Assembly: GCA_022826805.1 (NCBI GenBank)
Contig: JAJDUH010000062.1
Span: forward strand, 66,060-130,059
DNA from: Candidatus Poribacteria bacterium
Lineage (GTDB): Bacteria > Poribacteria > WGA-4E > WGA-3G
DNA: 64,000 bases
Direction: 5' to 3'
In this document: piece after piece, positions 17,737 to 60,843 of the stretch
Numbering within the stretch: the stretch's first letter is position 1
Layout of the letters: each line of letters begins with the position of its first letter
Program-made: the position numbers and the translations under genes
Notes under the pieces: generated by a model
What the model saw: the letters and a program-made list of their open reading frames with translations, nothing else
Told to the model about the DNA's origin: nothing
The model's database searches: none

Positions 17737-18852
17737 ATGATCGGAATAGAAAACATTGACTACCTTTCAAATCAACTTATCACATATATAGGCAATAAGC
17801 GTTCGCTATTGGGCCATATAGGCAAAGCAGTTATACAAGTAAAAAGACGAATAGGCAAGTCCCACCTTCGTGTATTTGATGCTTTCAGTGGCTCCGGTAT
17901 TGTCTCCCGTTTTATGAAAGCCCATGTTTCGTATCTTGCAAGTAATGATTTTGAGGACTATGCTGCGTCAATTTCACGATGTTATCTCCAAAATCACAGC
18001 ACAGTTGATTTGATTACAATTGCCAGAATTGTTGAGGAGCTCAACAATCGTGTGGACGAACCAACTTCTAAAGGATTTATTGAGAAACTTTATGCCCCTG
18101 AGGATGAATCGAGAATTACACAAGATGACCGCGTTTTCTACACCGGCAATAATGCCCGCCGACTGGATAACTATCGTAGAATGATTGAAGACTATCCTTC
18201 AAACTTCCGCGATTCGCTATTAGGGCCCCTTCTCAGTAAAGCGTCTGTCCACTCAAACACTTCAGGGGTATTTAAGGGCTTCTATAAGAACAAGATCACT
18301 GGGATTGGACAATACGGGGGCACTAACTCCAACGCACTAAGCCGTATTAAAGGAAAAATAGAACTGGAACCACCTGTGCTAAGCCAATTTGAGTGTGATT
18401 ACGAAGTGTATCATGACGACACGAATAAAATCGCTAGTCAAATCAAGGATCTTGATTTGACTTATATTGATCCTCCTTACAATCAACATCCTTATGGTTC
18501 AAACTACTTTATGCTAAACTTACTTGTGCATTATAAAGAACCTACAGAGATAAGTCGAGTATCGGGTATTCCAAAAGGCTGGAAACGTTCGGGCTATAAT
18601 GTTCAAACAAAATCTAAAGAACTATTTAAGGATCTACTGCATACACTTGACACACGCTTTTTCCTCATTTCCTTTAATAATGAAGGGTTTATTTCCCCAG
18701 ATGAAATGCGTGATATGCTCCGAAAAATAGGCACTGTTGATGAGTTTGAGATTCGGTACAACACATTTCGCGGGTCAAGGAATCTAAGAAACCGAAACAT
18801 TCATGTTACTGAACAACTATTTCTTGTAGAGAGGAATTTCAATGGCAAATAA
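17737..18852 (+). CDS. N6-adenine DNA methyltransferase (motif I -> target-recognition region -> DPPY order)
   Basis: YIGNKRSLL, FDAFSGSGIVSRF (FxGxG) and LTYIDPPYN motifs. ATG at 17737 is preceded by GAGGAAG; the track start at 17710 is a TTG without an RBS. 11-nt overlap with the downstream endonuclease gene. Confidence 0.85.
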   Translation: MIGIENIDYLSNQLITYIGNKRSLLGHIGKAVIQVKRRIGKSHLRVFDAFSGSGIVSRFMKAHVSYLASNDFEDYAASISRCYLQNHSTVDLITIARIVEELNNRVDEPTSKGFIEKLYAPEDESRITQDDRVFYTGNNARRLDNYRRMIEDYPSNFRDSLLGPLLSKASVHSNTSGVFKGFYKNKITGIGQYGGTNSNALSRIKGKIELEPPVLSQFECDYEVYHDDTNKIASQIKDLDLTYIDPPYNQHPYGSNYFMLNLLVHYKEPTEISRVSGIPKGWKRSGYNVQTKSKELFKDLLHTLDTRFFLISFNNEGFISPDEMRDMLRKIGTVDEFEIRYNTFRGSRNLRNRNIHVTEQLFLVERNFNGK

Positions 18853-19561
18853 AGATCGACTGCGAGAATCGCGGGCAGACACTATAATCAATGCAACGGC
18901 TAAACAACAAGAAACTGAACTTATGAAGGCACTTTACAAAGTTGAGGAATATTTGACAGGCAGATTTGCCAAGGGGATCACCTTAACTCATACAAAGCAA
19001 TGGTATCTGAAGGATATTATTCATGAACTGAAACCATATTTCCCCGACATTGATTTACATTATCACTTTGAGAAAAGCCATATTCGACCAGATGGTGGTA
19101 TCCTTGGAATAAAGAGTGTCAAGGACAATACCCTAACTTATCCAATTCTAATTTCGGAAGTCAAAAATCAGGGAACGAATGATATGCGTGCTAGGGAAGG
19201 AAAGCCCAAGCAAGCAAAAGGAAACGCTATTGAACGGCTTGGAAAGAACGTAATAGGATTTCGCACCGCATTGTTGCGCGAAAGTATCTTTCCGTTCGTT
19301 TGCTTTGGATACGGTTGTGATTTTGAGGAAACATCCTCAATTTTAGACAGGGTATCAACTATGGCAATGTTTGGCAAACTCAACAAGATTTACCTCCACA
19401 ATGAGGAAGATGGCCGATTCAACCGTGGTAGTTTCTATTTCCGTGCTGAGGAATGGACGGCCGATGAAATGTTCGATATTATGAAAGATATTGCGGAACG
19501 CGCTGTACTATACTACTTCTCTAAATACCGTGAAAATCATTTCATTGATTTTTCTAATTGA
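18842..19561 (+). CDS. EcoRI-family type II restriction endonuclease
   Basis: IRPDGGILGIK ... ILISEVKNQGTND ... AKGNAIERLGKNV ... FPFVCFGYGCDF aligns block by block with EcoRI (IKPDGGIVEVK ... VLVAEAKHQGKD ... AAGNAIERSHKNI ... FPYVLFLEGSNF). Confidence 0.85.
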   Translation: MANKDRLRESRADTIINATAKQQETELMKALYKVEEYLTGRFAKGITLTHTKQWYLKDIIHELKPYFPDIDLHYHFEKSHIRPDGGILGIKSVKDNTLTYPILISEVKNQGTNDMRAREGKPKQAKGNAIERLGKNVIGFRTALLRESIFPFVCFGYGCDFEETSSILDRVSTMAMFGKLNKIYLHNEEDGRFNRGSFYFRAEEWTADEMFDIMKDIAERAVLYYFSKYRENHFIDFSN

Positions 19562-19564
19562 ACA

Positions 19565-20512
19565 ATGACACTTAAAGAACATATTGACGATATACGCGGA
19601 AGTTTAGAAACAGGTCGCTACCCAGATGAGGCAGCAGTTCGTCAAGGCGTTGTGCTTAGGCTGCTTGACGCCCTGGATTGGCCAATATATAGCCCGCAGA
19701 TTGTCTATCCTCAGTACCCGGTCGGGGAAGGGAAAGTAGATTTTGCTCTGTGTCATCCCGAATCAACACCCCTCGTTTTTATTGAGGTCAAACAAATTGG
19801 AAACATCGAAGAGGCGGAACAGCAACTTTTTGAATACGCTTTTCACGAAGGAATTATCCCAATTGCTGTTCTCACGGATGGACAGAAATGGCGTTTTTTT
19901 CACCTGATGGGACTAGAATATTATAGAGAGCTAAAGGTCTGTGAATTAGACTTCATTAAAGGCAACAGTGAGGAAATTGCTGATTGCCTTAACATATACC
20001 TAAACTACCAGTCAATCCGTAAAGGTGAAGCAATTCGTAGAATAAAAAAAGACTATAAGAGAATCTATAAGCAGAAAATTCAGTGGAAACCTGTTCCACC
20101 AATACCGCCAGAACTACATCACGTGATTGTACCTCCTAACGCAGAGGACAACGAAGTTGTTTTCAATAAGACTGCCTGGAAAGTTGCTCACATGAGATGG
20201 TTGGGGGATGAGTGGAGAGGCTCCGTCCCGGAGGGAAATGTCGGAAAGGCAATACAGGTAATCGAATCTTCCTTGGAGAGCATCCAGGGAAGCGATATTT
20301 ACGAGCACTGCGTCAAACATCTTATGCTGACCACTCGTACAGCTGAGGAGTTCAATAAGTGGGTATGCCCACGCTCCGGTTTCTATAAGAAGAATATGCC
20401 AGAGAGGTTCGGTCGTCGCATGAGGTTATCGCCTGAGAGAGTCCAGCAAATGGTAGATGAAATAAAAAAAGAACACAACAGCCCTGCGCAGGGGAGCAAT
20501 AAGAATGCGTAA
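19565..20512 (+). CDS. PD-(D/E)xK nuclease-fold protein (HsdR-N-terminal-like domain) with a different C-terminal half, paralogue B
   Basis: 315 aa. KVDFAL...FIEVKQ, PIAVLTDGQKWRFF. N-terminus MTLKEHIDDIR versus MTLEEHIDDIR in paralogue A. Starts 3 nt after the endonuclease stop. Confidence 0.65.
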   Translation: MTLKEHIDDIRGSLETGRYPDEAAVRQGVVLRLLDALDWPIYSPQIVYPQYPVGEGKVDFALCHPESTPLVFIEVKQIGNIEEAEQQLFEYAFHEGIIPIAVLTDGQKWRFFHLMGLEYYRELKVCELDFIKGNSEEIADCLNIYLNYQSIRKGEAIRRIKKDYKRIYKQKIQWKPVPPIPPELHHVIVPPNAEDNEVVFNKTAWKVAHMRWLGDEWRGSVPEGNVGKAIQVIESSLESIQGSDIYEHCVKHLMLTTRTAEEFNKWVCPRSGFYKKNMPERFGRRMRLSPERVQQMVDEIKKEHNSPAQGSNKNA

Positions 20513-35677: not shown

Positions 35678-36744
35678 TACCGGGTACCACGCGGATAAGA
35701 TCCGAGTATTTTGACCTCTCGGCACAACACCTCAAGTTTCTCAAGTGCGGCGGTGACGCTTTCGTCGGTAACATGTCCATCCATCTCAACAAAAAAGATA
35801 TACTCCCACGATTTGGCGCGAGACGGTAAAGATTCCAGATAATTCATGTTCAATCGTGCTTCTTTTAAAATTCCAAGAACTTGATGAAGCGCGCCGACCC
35901 TGTCCTGAATTGCCAAAAAGAGAGAGGTCCGGTCGTGTCCACTGGGTTCAGCAGCGTGGCTACCAATGACAAAAAAACGGGTGGTGTTATCCGGCTCATC
36001 CATAATGGCACTAGCAACAACCGGGATTTGGTAAATTTCGCTTGCGAGTTCACTTGCGATGGCAGCCGTGGACGGCTCCTGTGATGCTCGAAGTGCTGCT
36101 TCGGAGGTACTGACAACCTCGACCTGCTCTACACCATCCATATACCGACTAAGCCATCTTCTGCATTGAGCGAAAGGTTGCGGGTGTGAGTAGATACACT
36201 TAATTTCGTTAAGTGGCGACTGAGACAGTAGATGTTGTTTTACGGGCTGGAATGTCTCGGCACAAATCTTCAATGGTGTACGTTGAAAGCGCTCCAAAAC
36301 GTCCCGAACGGTGCCTTGCAGCGAATTCTCAATAGCGACCACACCGTAGTCTGTTCTACCAGATTCAACCTCCGTAAAAATGTCGATCTGCGGACTGATA
36401 GGGATCAATTCAGCCGCGGAACCAAAATGAGATAAACATGCCATGTGCCCAAAACTGCCAATAGGACCGAGGAAAGCCACACGCTCCGGTTCTTGCAAGG
36501 AACGAGAAGCAGATAAGATTTCTGTCCAGATTGCCTCCAAGGCGTTTTCAGGAAATGCCCCTCGATTTTGCGCCTTCAAGCGTTCAATGACCTCCTTGTG
36601 CCGATGTGGCACATAGACGGTGGCAGCACCTGTCTCTGCTTTTAACGCACCGACCTGTAGAGAAATTTCAGATCGCTTCCGCAGAAGCGCTAAAATCTGG
36701 TCGTCAATCTCGTTAATCTGGTCACGATACGCTGTTAAGTCCAA
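35677..36744 (-). CDS. pheA: Bifunctional chorismate mutase / prephenate dehydratase (P-protein)
   Basis: CM region (YRDQINEIDDQILALLRKR), PDT region (VAFLGPIGSFGH), ACT region (TRFFVIG, SRP motif ESLPSR). Start uncertain: TTG at 36744 has GGAGA 9 nt upstream; TTG at 36771 is the track start. Confidence 0.9.
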   Translation of the reverse strand: MDLTAYRDQINEIDDQILALLRKRSEISLQVGALKAETGAATVYVPHRHKEVIERLKAQNRGAFPENALEAIWTEILSASRSLQEPERVAFLGPIGSFGHMACLSHFGSAAELIPISPQIDIFTEVESGRTDYGVVAIENSLQGTVRDVLERFQRTPLKICAETFQPVKQHLLSQSPLNEIKCIYSHPQPFAQCRRWLSRYMDGVEQVEVVSTSEAALRASQEPSTAAIASELASEIYQIPVVASAIMDEPDNTTRFFVIGSHAAEPSGHDRTSLFLAIQDRVGALHQVLGILKEARLNMNYLESLPSRAKSWEYIFFVEMDGHVTDESVTAALEKLEVLCREVKILGSYPRGTR

Positions 36745-36767
36745 GGAAATAGGTCTCCGTGTTATTG

Positions 36768-36788
36768 GCAATCAGCAATCAGCAATCA
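36768..36788. repeat. Heptanucleotide tandem repeat (gcaatca x3) in the pheA 5' region
   Basis: Three perfect units, followed by a degenerate fourth. Confidence 0.9.
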
Positions 36789-36922
36789 GCAAAAGCAGTT
36801 TGTGGCAAAAAACGAAACGCAACCACCACACACTTTCAGTAAAGCCTATGTAGCAGGAAAACGCTTGTCATCGCCACAACGACCTACCGATTGCCAACGG
36901 CTGACGGCTGACGACTATTCCG

Positions 36923-37168
36923 CTAACGATCCAATGCTTTCATAGCGGCGATCATTTCATCGTCTGAGGGGTTGCTCTTGACCATCTCAACGAACTCCTC
37001 AGCACTTACCTTGTGTTCCTCCAGGAACACCTTATCTTGCGGTCAGGGGTAGATATACTCACCGATGATGCCCTGCAGTTTCGCATTGGCTTTATCGGAG
37101 ATTCTGGCTAACCATCGAATATCTCCGATAATCATATCCCGGTGGCGTGGTTTCCAATCGAGAGCCAT
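36923..37168 (-). CDS. 81-codon gene interrupted by a single in-frame TGA (codon 42): candidate selenoprotein or pseudogene; DUF5069-like by memory
   Basis: Hand translation: MALDWKPRHRDMIIGDIRWLARISDKANAKLQGIIGEYIYP-TGA-PQDKVFLEEHKVSAEEFVEMVKSNPSDDEMIAAMKALDR*. AAGGAGGTG lies 7 nt before the ATG. Both halves are under 60 aa, so it is absent from the ORF track. Confidence 0.55.
37013..37030 (-). promoter_or_regulatory. SECIS-like hairpin 12 nt downstream of the in-frame UGA
   Basis: On the minus strand: UGA, then ccgcaagauaag, then GUGUUCC-UGGA-GGAACAC (perfect 7-bp stem, 4-nt loop containing G). Confidence 0.4.
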
Positions 37169-37307
37169 CTGTTTCACCTCCTTTAATCGTTATCAGTACG
37201 GTTTGCTTAGCAAACCTTTCAGTTATCAGTTGTCGGTTAAGAGGTGTCATCGTTTACCCAAACGCCTTTTTAAGCGACAACCGGCTGCTGACTGCCGACA
37301 GCAGGTT

Positions 37308-40300
37308 CTATTGTGTGTTTCCCTCAAGCTGCCGCAAAGCGCCCTCTAAAAGTTGAAGAGCCCTGCCATACTCTGCCCAGTTCCCAGCGCGTCGTGCGTC
37401 TTGCGCTTGAGTGAAGTAGCGGTTTGCTTGTTCAATAAGTCCTCGTAACGAGATTTGAGTTGTGCCGGGATCAGCGGCTGTTTCAGTTGTTGCTACGGTA
37501 TCAGTGGCTTGAGATAGCATTCCCTCTCCGAACATCTTGACGAGCGCCTCATCAAGGGTGGCTCCCCAGACAACTTGGTTGCCATAGCCAATGACGACTC
37601 GCCGCAATTCGGGGATAGCGGTTTTCTCATCTTCGGACTGAATGTAAATAGGCTCTACATAAAGCAGGGAGTTGTTCATCGGGAGAATCAACAGATTGCC
37701 TCGTAAGACGCGGGATCCTTGTGTATTCCAAAGACTAATCTGTTGGGAAATCTCCGGCTCTTGGCTAATAAAGTTTTCCACTTGCATGGGTCCAGCGACC
37801 TGTTTGCCTTTCGGGAAACGGTAAACGAGGAGCTGCCCGTATTGGGGCAAATCGCATCGGGCGGCGAGCCACGCGGTAAGATTCGGCTTGTTGAGGGGTG
37901 TGAAAGGTAACATTAACATGAATTCCGCCTTCTCCTGCCCCGGTAGCCTGATAACAACATAGTAGGGTTCAACGGGTTGCCCGTTTACGCCAGAAGTTTG
38001 GGGTACTTGTTGTGGCGCAAAAGGACTTCTTTGTTGGGGCGGTGCAGCTTGCCGCGTTTGGGCATCCGTGTTGTCATAGAGTTCCCTGCCAATCTCCCAT
38101 TTATCTTCACCCGCATAAAAGGTTACCGGATCCTTCATGTGATAATCTTGATAGACCCGCGCTTGAATCAGGAACATGGATGTCGGATAACGGATATGCG
38201 TTTTGAGTTCATCTGGCATCTCTTCAAACGATTTGAAGAGATCTGGGAAGATTCTGCGATAGCACTCGGCAATAGGATCCTGTTCTCGTTCCATAATATA
38301 AAAATCGACACTACCATCGTAAGTATCAACAATCACTTTGACAGAATTTCGGATATAGTTGCCCCACGGTTCACTGTTCCGCTGTGTATTTGCAATTTGT
38401 CGCCTTCTTTCGCTGACAAACTCCTCCATAGAAACAGCATAGGGATACCGATGGGTGATGGTATACGCATCGATTATCCAAACGAGTCTCCCGTTATGGA
38501 TAACGATGTAGGGGTCGCCATCATATCGCAAGAAAGGTGCGATCTTCTGAACTCGTTCCCTGATATTTCGTTCATAGAGAATCCGACTGGTCGGTGAAAT
38601 TTCACCCGGCAAGACGAAGTTAATTTCGTTATCGAATTTGAGCATATAAACGAGTTTACGCCAGAAAGAGTTCAACTGTACGCCGCCTTTTCCCTGATAT
38701 GCATATTCGGCGTATTGTTGTCCCTCTTGCGGATAATCGAATTCAAGCCCTTGGGGACGATCTGGGTGGACAATAACGTAGCGATTGGTCCGCTCACCAT
38801 AGTAGATACGGGGTCCCGGCGTTTCACTAAATCGGTGTTGCCACTGTTCGTTATAATCAATAGGCGGCAACCCTTGAATGTACATGTTCGGTTTGCCGTT
38901 ATCAATTTCGTTGACAGGACTAACGACTGCACCATATCCGTGTGTATAGGTATAGGTCTGCTTATACCAATCATTTCTGATTTCTACGGGAAGTTCGTTG
39001 ATATTGAGTTCCCGTCCGGCAAGCATTACCTGTCGAATTTCACCATCAACAACATAGCGATCAATGTCAACATCATTGAAGTCGTATTGCGATCTTAATT
39101 CTTGGAGTTGGCGGAAAGTTCTGCGTAAGGGGCGCCAATCCCAGAGTCGGATGCTATTAAAAACAGGGGCGTTTTCTGGACTTCTAATATCAGCATAATT
39201 GAGTTGCTCCGTCAGTGGGTATTCCTGCTCGGTCACAGTGTTTCCGGCTAAGCCGTAAGCTTGGAGCGTTGCTTTGATATTATAGTTGATATAATCTGAC
39301 TCTAATACCTGTTTTCTGGGTTCAACTTGCCATCTCTGTATAGCGACGGGATAGGCTTGTCCGAGGAATCCAGCGATTAGAAAGACGGCGAATCCACCGA
39401 AAGCAAGGGTGTTGCGCTTCAGGAAGATGCTGACGATGAAAACCAACGCACACAAGATTGTGATACCGAGCATAATCCACAATACAGGAAGGCGCGCCTG
39501 TATAGCAGCGTATCCACCACCGCCACGCACGACATTGTTTGAGGTATACAACAAGTCGTACATAGCGAATTGGTAGTTCCAAGCGCGGCAGAGGAGTGTT
39601 ATCCCAACGAGTGTAAACAGATGGGCTTTCACGTTGAAAGGCGGACGGAACCTAAACTGGTTGGTATCACCCGTGATTAACCCGTGGAAAAAGTAGATAA
39701 CGACTGCGAATATTGTTACCAACAAGAAAACACCAAAAAGCGTTCCACAGATATATCGCCACATGGGCATTCTGAAAACATAATAGGAGACATCTTTATT
39801 GAAAATCGGGTCGCGTGCGGGTGAAGTAAAAAACGCTTTTTGTCCAGGTTCTATCTGAATGGATGTATTCAATCGGATAGCATTGCCCAAGACAGCTTCA
39901 ACGCGTGCCTCCTGATTTATGCCATTGACCTGAACATTTACTGGATCCCCAACCGTTATATTTTTCGCTTGGAGTTCCAATTCTGAGACCGGAATCTCGT
40001 TAGAATCAAGCCCACCTTCGGCGATAATAGGCGTAGCTGCAGGAAAAACGAGTTCATTGGAATTGGCGAAACGTTGGTAAACCTCCCAGCGGTCACTGGC
40101 TGTGTATCCCATCAAGACACTAAAAAGCACTGCGAGAAGCGTTAGCCCACCGTAAATCAACCTTCGTGTAGCACCCGGATCGTCTGTAGCACCGGTGAAT
40201 TCGGCACCTCCCATAAAAGCGGGGCTGAGATACGCTGGCGTGAATCGGTAGATTACAGCAATATTTGTTAGCAGGATTATCAAATAGCAGAGCCCAACAA

Positions 40301-49926: not shown

Positions 49927-50400
49927 CAGGCATCAAACGCATCATCCGTATCAAAAACGTATTTCGGATTGTAGGGAACATCGAAACGTTTCAGAAACGC
50001 GAGATATTCCTCTCTAAATGTCTGATGTGAATGATGGACCTCCTGATTTTTTAATGTAACGAACGACAGTATCTAACTGTGAGTGAGAATATGAGAACGC
50101 GCCAAAGCCCGTCTGCCATTGGAATTTTCCGAGAACCCATCTCTTTTTATTAATGAATTTTGATGAATTTGCCTTGATGTCCCTTACTAAATCAGAGAGT
50201 GCCATATCGGGTGTCATCCCGACAAGGATATGGATATGATCGGGCATTGAATTAATCCGAATGACTGTTTGCTTTTTGTTGGTGATAATGCGGGTAATAT
50301 ATTGGTGTAAAGCTTCTTTGTGCTGTTTTGGAATTAGGGATTGTCTCCCTTTGACGGCAAAGACAACATGCATGTAAATTTGGGTATAGGTATCCGCCAT
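49926..50400 (-). pseudogene. IS200-like Y1 (HUH) transposase in a REP-associated (RAYT-like) arrangement; frameshifted in an A6 run
   Basis: YMHVVFAVKGR, MPDHIHILVG (HUH), GFGAFSYS (catalytic Tyr region). After ...VVRYIK the family-typical NQEVHHSHQTFREEYLAFLKRFDVPYNPKYVF continues in the +1 frame to TGA at 49926-49928. The shift is at the T6/A6 run 50047-50052. Confidence 0.8.
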
Positions 50401-59504: not shown

Positions 59505-59650
59505 TTATTTGACATCCTCCCCAAGCTAAAGCATGGGCATTCCTTTGTTCCTCGTGGGAATATTCTCTGCTCAGGCAGAGCGACAGAGATGCCATTTGAA
59601 TCTGACACCTATGGGGGCTGCCAATGCCCCGACTACAGGATTGAAAAGCA
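59505..59650 (-). ncRNA. Predicted omega/right-end RNA of the TnpB element (extent approximate)
   Basis: By analogy with characterised TnpB loci, the guide RNA scaffold overlaps the 3' end of tnpB. Hairpin CTCTGC-ctga-GCAGAG spans the stop codon, then cccatgctttagcttgggg-aggatgtcaa. Confidence 0.4.
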
Positions 59651-60725
59651 ATCCTGATACTTGTTTCCAAAGGTTTATCGCACCAACACCATCGCGATGA
59701 TATTTGAAGCCGCAAGCAAGGCAGTGATAGTTTCGGTTATTTGGTTGCTTTCGGTTGCCACACTGCGGACAGGTTTGCGAGGTATACGCCTCTGAAACTG
59801 AAATGACTCGGATACCCGCGAGTTCGGCTTTGTAGGTGATGAGGTGTCTGACACGAGCAAACGCCCACTGGTGAATCTTCTGGTTAGACTTCTTGGAGTA
59901 TTGCGCACGATCTCGAATGCCTTTGAGATCTCCAATCACAAGCGTATCCGCCTTCGCTCTCTGGCAGTCGGATATAAAACGTGATGTGATTTTATGCTCA
60001 GCATCCTTGATTTGGGCATTGAGTTTATCTAAGGTGCGGCGTTTCGCTTTTCGGAGGCGATGCCATCGCCGCGAACCTTTTTCGCAGCGAGCCATTTTTG
60101 CTGAAAAGTGGGCTTTGGTTTTCTCTCGATAACGAACGATAGACCGCAGAAAACGTCCGTTGTAGATTCTGGTATTTGTGCCGTTATGGGAAACAATCGG
60201 ATGAATTTCACCCAAGTCTACAGCAACAGTGATACCTGTGTTCTGTTTCGGTGGTGTTTCTACTTTATAGACGAGTGAAAAGAAGTATGCCCCGCGGTGA
60301 TAGTACATCTCTACATATTTCGGTCGGATGTCGGTTTCCAAAAGAATAGGATCACGACCAACCCCATTTGAAAGCCTCAATAGCCCTTCTTTTGGGTGAC
60401 TGATAGCATTTGATTTCCAACGCACCTTGAAATGTCTTGATGTGTGCTTCGGGGGCTTGGCATCAGCATTCGACTTACGCACCTGAAAAAAGGATTTCAA
60501 AGCATCAAAATAGGAATCCGCACACGCTTGGACGCTCTGTGAATGCAACTCAGACTCGCGGTGGCGCATATACTTCTGGACACTACCTTTAGACAACCAA
60601 AAACCTTTTCGCTGATGGGTCTTGCGGACAAGCGAAACAACCTTAGAATAGCAACGTCCAGACTCACGGGCAAGTGCGTCTAAATATGGAGTCGGTTTAA
60701 CCTTGATTTTTTCTGTGAGATACAT
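59571..60725 (-). CDS. tnpB: TnpB RNA-guided endonuclease (OrfB_IS605 + Zn ribbon)
   Basis: Start at MYLTEKIK (AAAGGA RBS). RuvC residues in VAVDLGEIHP, SEAYTSQTC and HRDGVGAINL. CPQCG...CLACG zinc ribbon. Confidence 0.88.
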   Translation of the reverse strand: MYLTEKIKVKPTPYLDALARESGRCYSKVVSLVRKTHQRKGFWLSKGSVQKYMRHRESELHSQSVQACADSYFDALKSFFQVRKSNADAKPPKHTSRHFKVRWKSNAISHPKEGLLRLSNGVGRDPILLETDIRPKYVEMYYHRGAYFFSLVYKVETPPKQNTGITVAVDLGEIHPIVSHNGTNTRIYNGRFLRSIVRYREKTKAHFSAKMARCEKGSRRWHRLRKAKRRTLDKLNAQIKDAEHKITSRFISDCQRAKADTLVIGDLKGIRDRAQYSKKSNQKIHQWAFARVRHLITYKAELAGIRVISVSEAYTSQTCPQCGNRKQPNNRNYHCLACGFKYHRDGVGAINLWKQVSGLLFNPVVGALAAPIGVRFKWHLCRSA

Positions 60726-60814
60726 GGTGTTCCTTTCACATGGTGATGCCGCCTTCAAACGGAGCGGTGGCACCCTCGTGTGAGGGGTGAAGTCCACCGC
60801 CACCATGTTTAGGT

Positions 60815-60843
60815 ATAATAGCATTTTCTCACATAAAAGTCAA
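60815..60843 (-). promoter_or_regulatory. Sigma70 promoter for tnpB inside the left end
   Basis: Minus strand: TTGACT, 17-nt spacer, TATTAT. Confidence 0.55.

Follow-up and report, generated by a model that had tools for sequence, protein, structure and literature searches.

The question raised by this locus is whether an in-frame TGA in a small open reading frame of a Candidatus Poribacteria contig ends a 41-residue peptide or is decoded as an amino acid inside a longer protein. The window, that is, the whole 64,000-nucleotide stretch of DNA that was analysed, had been read in a first-pass annotation, made from the letters alone, as carrying a hidden small gene with one internal TGA followed by a hairpin, and thus a candidate selenoprotein. 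The gene structure described there is present on the reverse strand (Table 1). A strong ribosome-binding site and an ATG open a frame that runs for 41 codons to the TGA, and the same frame carries on for 39 further codons to a TAG, giving a conceptual translation, in agreement with the earlier one, of MALDWKPRHRDMIIGDIRWLARISDKANAKLQGIIGEYIYP up to the TGA and PQDKVFLEEHKVSAEEFVEMVKSNPSDDEMIAAMKALDR from there to the TAG. The start codon in the mechanical list of open reading frames is a GTG at 37177 and not the ATG at 37168; the ATG is supported as the start because orthologues begin with M[ASG]LDWKPR. The protein holds no other cysteine, making the residue at the TGA its sole cysteine-type residue, and as neither a second Cys nor a CxxU motif is found in it, the usual redox signature is missing. 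It had also been noted that TGA is an ordinary stop elsewhere in the window, and this is borne out by the 9 of 39 long open reading frames, prfA included, that TGA terminates; global reassignment is therefore not the case here. A related 86-kb poribacterial contig has the same order of genes as the window: UPF0182, the DUF5069 gene, pheA and queG.

Table 1. Coordinates of the features of the TGA-containing gene, numbered from the first letter of the window
Feature	Coordinates	Strand	Remarks
Shine-Dalgarno-like site AAGGAGGTG	37175..37183	(-)	Direct sequence read; ATG 6 nt downstream
Complete CDS, 81-residue DUF5069-family protein	36923..37168	(-)	ATG 37168-37166, TAG 36925-36923; proposed Sec is residue 42
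In-frame TGA, proposed selenocysteine codon	37043..37045	(-)	Residue 42, motif GEYIYP-U-PQD
UGA-to-hairpin spacer, encodes PQDK	37031..37042	(-)	12 nt here; 13 nt to the universally conserved 6-bp stem
SECIS-like hairpin GUGUUCC-UGGA-GGAACAC	37013..37030	(-)	Core stem 37029-37024 / 37019-37014, loop UGGA 37023-37020

A resemblance to DUF5069 proteins, suggested in the first-pass annotation, was confirmed by a Pfam search with the product in which Cys had been typed in at residue 42: PF16798 was matched at 47.8 bits (cut-off 27; E = 2.1e-12). The alignment continues unbroken through the TGA, covering profile positions 4-75 of 133, and either half alone falls below the threshold. A profile search of the PDB returned a single match, 3OMD, a protein of unknown function from Leptospirillum rubarum (E = 5e-11), which carries Cys at the position aligned with the TGA (GEYTYNCPLDQ). 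With one Pfam domain and one crystal-structure homologue spanning the TGA without a break, the two halves are parts of one protein, as their appearance had suggested.

The conservation of the TGA was examined by scanning the GTDB species, each represented by a single genome. Among the 176 relatives detected, the best 80 were without exception MAGs of Candidatus Poribacteria, and many of these are complete chromosomes. Codon 42 is TGA in all 80 of these poribacterial species representatives (the best 80 of 176) and in two more poribacterial contigs, for a count of 82/82 distinct poribacterial coding sequences, and the 81-codon architecture is kept across the 80 loci with the single exception of an 84-codon form (42 rather than 39 codons after the TGA). 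Scanning JGI metagenomes with a more divergent query yielded 57 loci, comprising 48 with TGA, 8 with TGC or TGT and 1 that was truncated, and three further divergent contigs (L086-L088) also have TGA. In total, TGA is found in 131/131 genes of the Sec clades (80 from Poribacteria and 51 from metagenome relatives), with the next stop lying 39-50 codons on. Among the 82 distinct coding sequences, dN/dS was 0.037 for codons 1-41 versus 0.090 for codons 43-81, at a dS of about 1.2 (1.15 in the C-terminal half), and the mean entropy of the downstream half was 0.86 at third codon positions versus 0.30 at first and 0.17 at second positions. Codons 43-46, directly past the TGA, differ mainly at their third positions (CCG/CCA/CCC, CAA/CAG, GAT/GAC and AAA/AAG), with five rare replacements, and as this variation is mostly synonymous, these codons are translated in frame beyond the UGA. 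The comparative record demonstrates that the UGA is conserved and, by the signature of selection on its far side, that it is translated through.

To establish what residue the family carries at this position, an exhaustive profile search was conducted, which yielded 492 members at E <= 1e-3, and the column aligned with the TGA was counted in the 147 best representatives covering the site. Cys was found in 100 of these, Ser in 22, an apparent Trp in 13 and some other residue in the remaining 12. The 13 Trp entries are restricted to the TGA clades, and those examined as DNA read TGA, so the Trp is probably an artefact of translation with genetic code (table) 4; the same call, Trp at the TGA as in code 4, was seen in short ENA/Logan contigs (L002:258-503, P0001-P0012 and P0019). 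No TGG was seen at the column in any family member, and the only alternatives to TGA among close relatives were TGC or TGT. In favour of the original proposal, the column holds a conserved Cys in 100/147 representatives, in 3OMD and, as TGC or TGT, in nine close relatives. One of these Cys forms (L095) shares 86% identity with a Sec form (L089) but no more than 57% with the Cys form next closest to it; being nearer to a Sec form than to its fellow Cys forms, it indicates that switches between Sec and Cys have been recent and repeated. These alignments show the UGA taking the place of the family's conserved Cys.

The hairpin that had been pointed out 12 nt past the UGA is indeed a perfect 7-bp stem closed by a UGGA loop (GUGUUCC-UGGA-GGAACAC). 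In an RNAalifold consensus it is reduced to a 6-bp stem with the UGGA loop, placed 13 nt (UGA to stem) and 19 nt (UGA to loop) from the UGA over codons for (M/V/L)FLEEH, and the distance to the loop falls inside the range of 16-37 nt used by bSECISearch. The 6-bp hairpin is short, at about -6 to -10 kcal/mol, and its folding energy was no better than that of shuffled sequences (z = -0.33 and -0.42); its significance therefore comes from comparative data alone. Within Poribacteria the hairpin is nearly invariant, with U-A changed to U-G twice, C-G changed to U-G once and one break, and its codons are nearly fixed as well (TTC in 82, CTG in 81, GAG in 82 and GAA in 80 of 82), whereas Phe and Glu codons elsewhere in the same gene vary freely, for example with TTT 47 / TTC 35 and GAG 58 / GAA 14. 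Across all 131 TGA genes, the corresponding counts are 130 for TTC, 128 for CTG, 129 for GAG and 125 for GAA.

Covariation was counted on 57 distinct sequences from all clades. Pair 26-41 is AU in 18, UA in 16, GU in 13 and GC in 2 of these, and pair 27-40 is GC in 44 and CG in 10, giving a covariation score of 0.268 versus 0.109 for shuffles (0/500 as high) and no more than 0.101 for slid controls. The compensatory changes are confined to the two outer pairs, and the seventh pair is mostly unpaired across clades. The loop and the four inner pairs do not vary, so the FLEE peptide, and not the RNA, could account for part of their conservation. If the canonical hairpin is taken to be five inner pairs with a UGGA loop, all in a fixed register, 128/131 TGA genes contain it versus 0/9 relatives with a Cys codon (Fisher p = 5e-10 on distinct sequences), and in the Cys forms either the stem is broken or the G's of the loop are lost. 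The three TGA genes outside this count are L088 and L099, which have a different hairpin in the same place, and L117, which has none. The last of these (L117:633-692) retains its TGA in the absence of UUCC-UGGA-GGAA, with the codons TTC CTC GAC CGG, and may have an alternative structure or be in decay. Judged by covariation and by its distribution among relatives, the hairpin is demonstrably under RNA-level selection specific to the UGA forms. The suggestion that it is a candidate SECIS element is thus strengthened, as it is conserved, covaries and is missing from the Cys forms, and the G at loop position 2 agrees with the bacterial SECIS consensus (G in the first two loop positions) quoted in PMC13582414. 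Rfam returned no match for the whole window at the gathering score, and a search of 36850-37250 at E <= 10 yielded no SECIS model, just a chance miRNA match.

Sequencing reads offered a further check, as a base-call error had been listed among the alternatives to a selenoprotein. No variant at 37043-37045 was present in contigs of four sponge metagenome runs, and the likely source run matches exactly at the site at about 48x depth. The neighbouring G>C at 37046 is a synonymous change of CCC to CCG known from other strains. The TGA is also crossed by contigs from four metatranscriptome runs of sponges, which belong to three studies, and these show no variant there. In these RNA contigs, word depth is higher over the gene than over its flanks, although contig depth is a rough guide and DNA carry-over is possible; in window positions 36700-37400 of the RNA runs X23, X24, X25 and X28, the summed depth over the gene is several-fold above that over pheA and far above that over UPF0182. 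The 3' end of the gene and the 5' end of pheA are joined in some RNA contigs, which suggests co-transcription of the two.

Column, selection, hairpin and reads together support the view that this is a Sec-containing member of DUF5069, and we consider it highly probable that a SECIS-type mechanism recodes the UGA at codon 42, with Sec as the most likely residue. By analogy with characterised systems, we infer that the inserted residue is Sec and that SelB is the reader of the hairpin. With the ribosome at the UGA, a complex of SelB, GTP and Sec-tRNA(Sec) would bind the small hairpin, SelB would deliver Sec in competition with release factor 2, and the product would be one 81-residue short-form DUF5069 protein with Sec at codon 42. 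None of selA, selB, selD or tRNA-Sec lies within the 64-kb window or the retrieved loci of its relatives. Indirect support comes from the literature: COGs for SelA, SelB and SelD are listed for the poribacterial bin44, bin70 and the single-cell genome WGA-3G in Table S4 of PMC5649159, and Sec-type group 4 hydrogenases are reported in Poribacteria (PMC13582414).

A different outcome of the same SelB/SECIS route, in which a tRNA(ReC)-type tRNA (selC*) inserts Cys in place of Sec, would be equally compatible with the TGA, the hairpin and the Cys homologues. In PMC13582414, tRNA(ReC) is described as reading SECIS-associated UGA as Cys and as occurring in about 13-17% of surveyed genomes, but the enrichment reported there is chiefly with UXXU motifs and outside this phylum. 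SelA and SelD serve Sec alone and have been reported from poribacterial genomes, and costly recoding for the sake of Cys would be unparsimonious when relatives simply use TGC or TGT, so that insertion of Cys by this route is quite improbable.

Alternatively, the UGA could be a leaky stop read independently of any SECIS by a near-cognate tRNA, such as that for Trp, with the hairpin slowing termination and a mixture of 41- and 81-residue products as the result. The UGA is always followed by C in Poribacteria, a weak termination context in E. coli, and the hairpin is small, both of which would suit such leakage. Near-cognate reading is nonetheless difficult to reconcile with a column in which the conserved residue is Cys and the sense codons are TGC and TGT with no genuine TGG, or with a hairpin that has the SECIS register and loop G and is lost exactly upon the switch to a Cys codon, and we regard it as quite improbable.

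Two separate small genes, the first encoding a 41-residue peptide that ends at the TGA and the second restarting at codon 47 through termination-reinitiation, are just what public gene callers predict, and codon 47 is a possible start (ATG, GTG, TTG or CTG) in 81/82 poribacterial sequences. Other TGA clades, however, have no start codon there but AAG, AGG, AGC, AAC or CGC, and the coding pattern already appears in codons 43-46, ahead of the supposed restart, while one Pfam domain and one crystal-structure homologue bridge both halves; reinitiation is accordingly a highly improbable account. A pseudogene with a nonsense mutation, or an error in assembly or base calling, which the single window taken alone would not be enough to exclude, is ruled out for practical purposes by the presence of TGA in 131 independent genomes or contigs (131/131), by purifying selection on both halves (dN/dS <= 0.09 on both sides with dS > 1), by the retention of the 81-codon length and by the invariant reads of eight sequencing runs.

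With recoding as Sec as the preferred reading, the structure of the family was examined for indications of function. The closest Cys homologue, P0013, which shares 59% identity with the window protein, was modelled with AlphaFold (AF2) at a pLDDT of 91.7; the model depicts a small beta-hairpin followed by four helices, with Cys46 directly preceding helix 2 (47-55), after the GxYxYP loop. Foldseek aligned this model to 3omd_A with a probability of 1.00, a query-normalised TM-score of 0.75 and an rmsd of 0.8 A over 72 columns, and as 3OMD was its only match in the PDB, the fold provides no functional lead. Going by this model, the DUF5069 fold is not thioredoxin-like. More tentatively, a single-selenol redox or carrier role seems most likely for the predicted Sec protein, because the residue is its only cysteine-type residue and is located just before helix 2, after the GxYxYP loop; the protein may, for instance, act as a reductant or peroxidase of the 1-Cys type, or shuttle sulfur, selenium or a metal. 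Our confidence in any specific biochemical function is low.

The genomic neighbourhood contains no universal partner gene. In Poribacteria and in a single related clade the gene is followed by pheA; the neighbours in other clades differ. In ten related metagenome loci (L124:1018-2364, and also L113-L116, L119, L120 and L125-L127), a glutaredoxin fused to a thioredoxin-reductase-like flavoprotein of the pyridine-nucleotide-disulfide-reductase type is encoded directly upstream on the same strand, with a dodecin-like gene further upstream of it. The fusion could serve as a redox partner, but Poribacteria do not conserve it. In the window itself, the intergenic region upstream of the gene (37189-37230) contains a perfect palindrome, GGTTTGC-TAA-GCAAACC (37216-37200), which occurs once in the window and matches five other contigs of the source-like run X1 with 2-5 mismatches, and so looks like a short repeat dispersed in this genome. 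Perfect heptamer tandem repeats lie between the gene and pheA, GCAATCA x3.6 just before the pheA start (36768-36792) and ACGGCTG x2.4 just past the TAG (36897-36913), and related strains show large replacements in this interval, with RNA and DNA contigs skipping 155-190 nt.

Elsewhere in the window, other TGA-split reading frames were sought by translating five candidates in stretches free of open reading frames, and none resembles coding sequence. An apparent restriction-modification cluster at 17737-20512 encodes a D12-class adenine methyltransferase together with an EcoRI-family endonuclease and a protein with an HSDR_N domain. The reading frames of the endonuclease and the HSDR_N-domain protein lie in one frame with only a TGA between them, which looks like chance adjacency and not recoding. 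The window also contains an IS200-type Y1 transposase gene (50014-50400) and a separate OrfB_IS605 / Cas12f1-like (TnpB) gene (59571-60824).

To place the protein among described selenoproteins, it was compared with family collections and the literature. The window protein does not match NF041374 or NF045500, and a scan of NCBIfam 20.0 returned 0 families at E <= 1. PF16798/DUF5069 is not among the 119 prokaryotic selenoprotein families in Table 1 of PMC13188914 (2026), nor is DUF5069 mentioned in the supplements of deep-Sep, a selenoprotein-gene prediction tool (PMC12013277). A search of about 8.3 million full texts for the term DUF5069 gave no occurrence, and one for 3OMD gave unrelated papers only. 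Judged against NCBIfam and the list in PMC13188914, this is a new selenoprotein family of a known kind, the bacterial selenoproteins with an intragenic SECIS. The DUF5069 Sec gene appears to be close to universal in Poribacteria and to occur in other marine lineages as well.

Public gene calls either split the gene into 41-residue or N-terminally extended pieces or mistranslate the UGA, leaving the protein effectively invisible in databases. For example, on the 154.6-kb ENA contig KELL22-1_SAMN22237336_METAG-scaffold_221, which includes the window, the gene is called as a 41-residue open reading frame without a Pfam match, and in the protein search the 81-residue relatives with Trp all came from short ENA contigs, with the versions from long contigs being fragments that end after YIYP. 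Gene calls with Trp for TGA are a general trap in analyses of Sec/Cys columns. Recognition of the proposed Sec residue brings a further family into the selenoproteins and singles out one position as the functional centre of DUF5069, which is directly testable by redox assays and Cys/Sec mutants because the crystal structure of a Cys relative, 3OMD, exists. It also suggests that the Poribacteria, a dominant phylum of uncultivated symbionts in marine sponges, require selenium. The 131 Sec and 9 Cys forms, in which the hairpin vanishes with Sec, provide a natural experiment for SECIS models and Sec-codon predictors. A bolder interpretation, which is possible but which we hold to be doubtful, is that DUF5069 constitutes an unrecognised class of redox or carrier proteins with a single Cys or Sec and a non-thioredoxin fold, whose Sec form is a core, transcribed poribacterial gene, decoded through an unusually minimal, invariant SECIS (UUCC-UGGA-GGAA) that several marine lineages share. 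If this were true, the shared invariant SECIS would imply either that SelB recognises it in a distinctive mode or that gene and SECIS have spread together horizontally.

Finally, the locus can be set beside the systems it most resembles. In common with bacterial selenoprotein genes that have an intragenic SECIS (E. coli fdhF and the bSECISearch model), it has a UGA aligned with Cys, a stem-loop inside the coding sequence with an early loop G, and Sec and Cys forms interleaved among close relatives. Unlike the fdhF-type SECIS, its hairpin is minimal and lacks a bulged U, an internal loop and a conserved lower stem; four of its pairs and the loop do not vary over several clades, and no Rfam model matches it. 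The protein itself is not among the listed selenoprotein families and has neither a CxxU nor a UxxC motif. With DUF5069 and 3OMD it shares the motifs LARxxDKARA and GxYxYP-C/U-PxD and, through the P0013 model, the fold, but the window protein is a short form that lacks the C-terminal part of 3OMD and in which the proposed Sec replaces Cys. Relative to the "hypothetical" selenoprotein families of the GOS datasets, such as GOS_A, the sequence is unrelated and the motif is another one, with no YIYPU string occurring in those datasets, but the kind of family is alike: small, mostly from marine or uncultivated bacteria, and recognised only through the combination of a TGA, Cys homologues and a SECIS-like hairpin.
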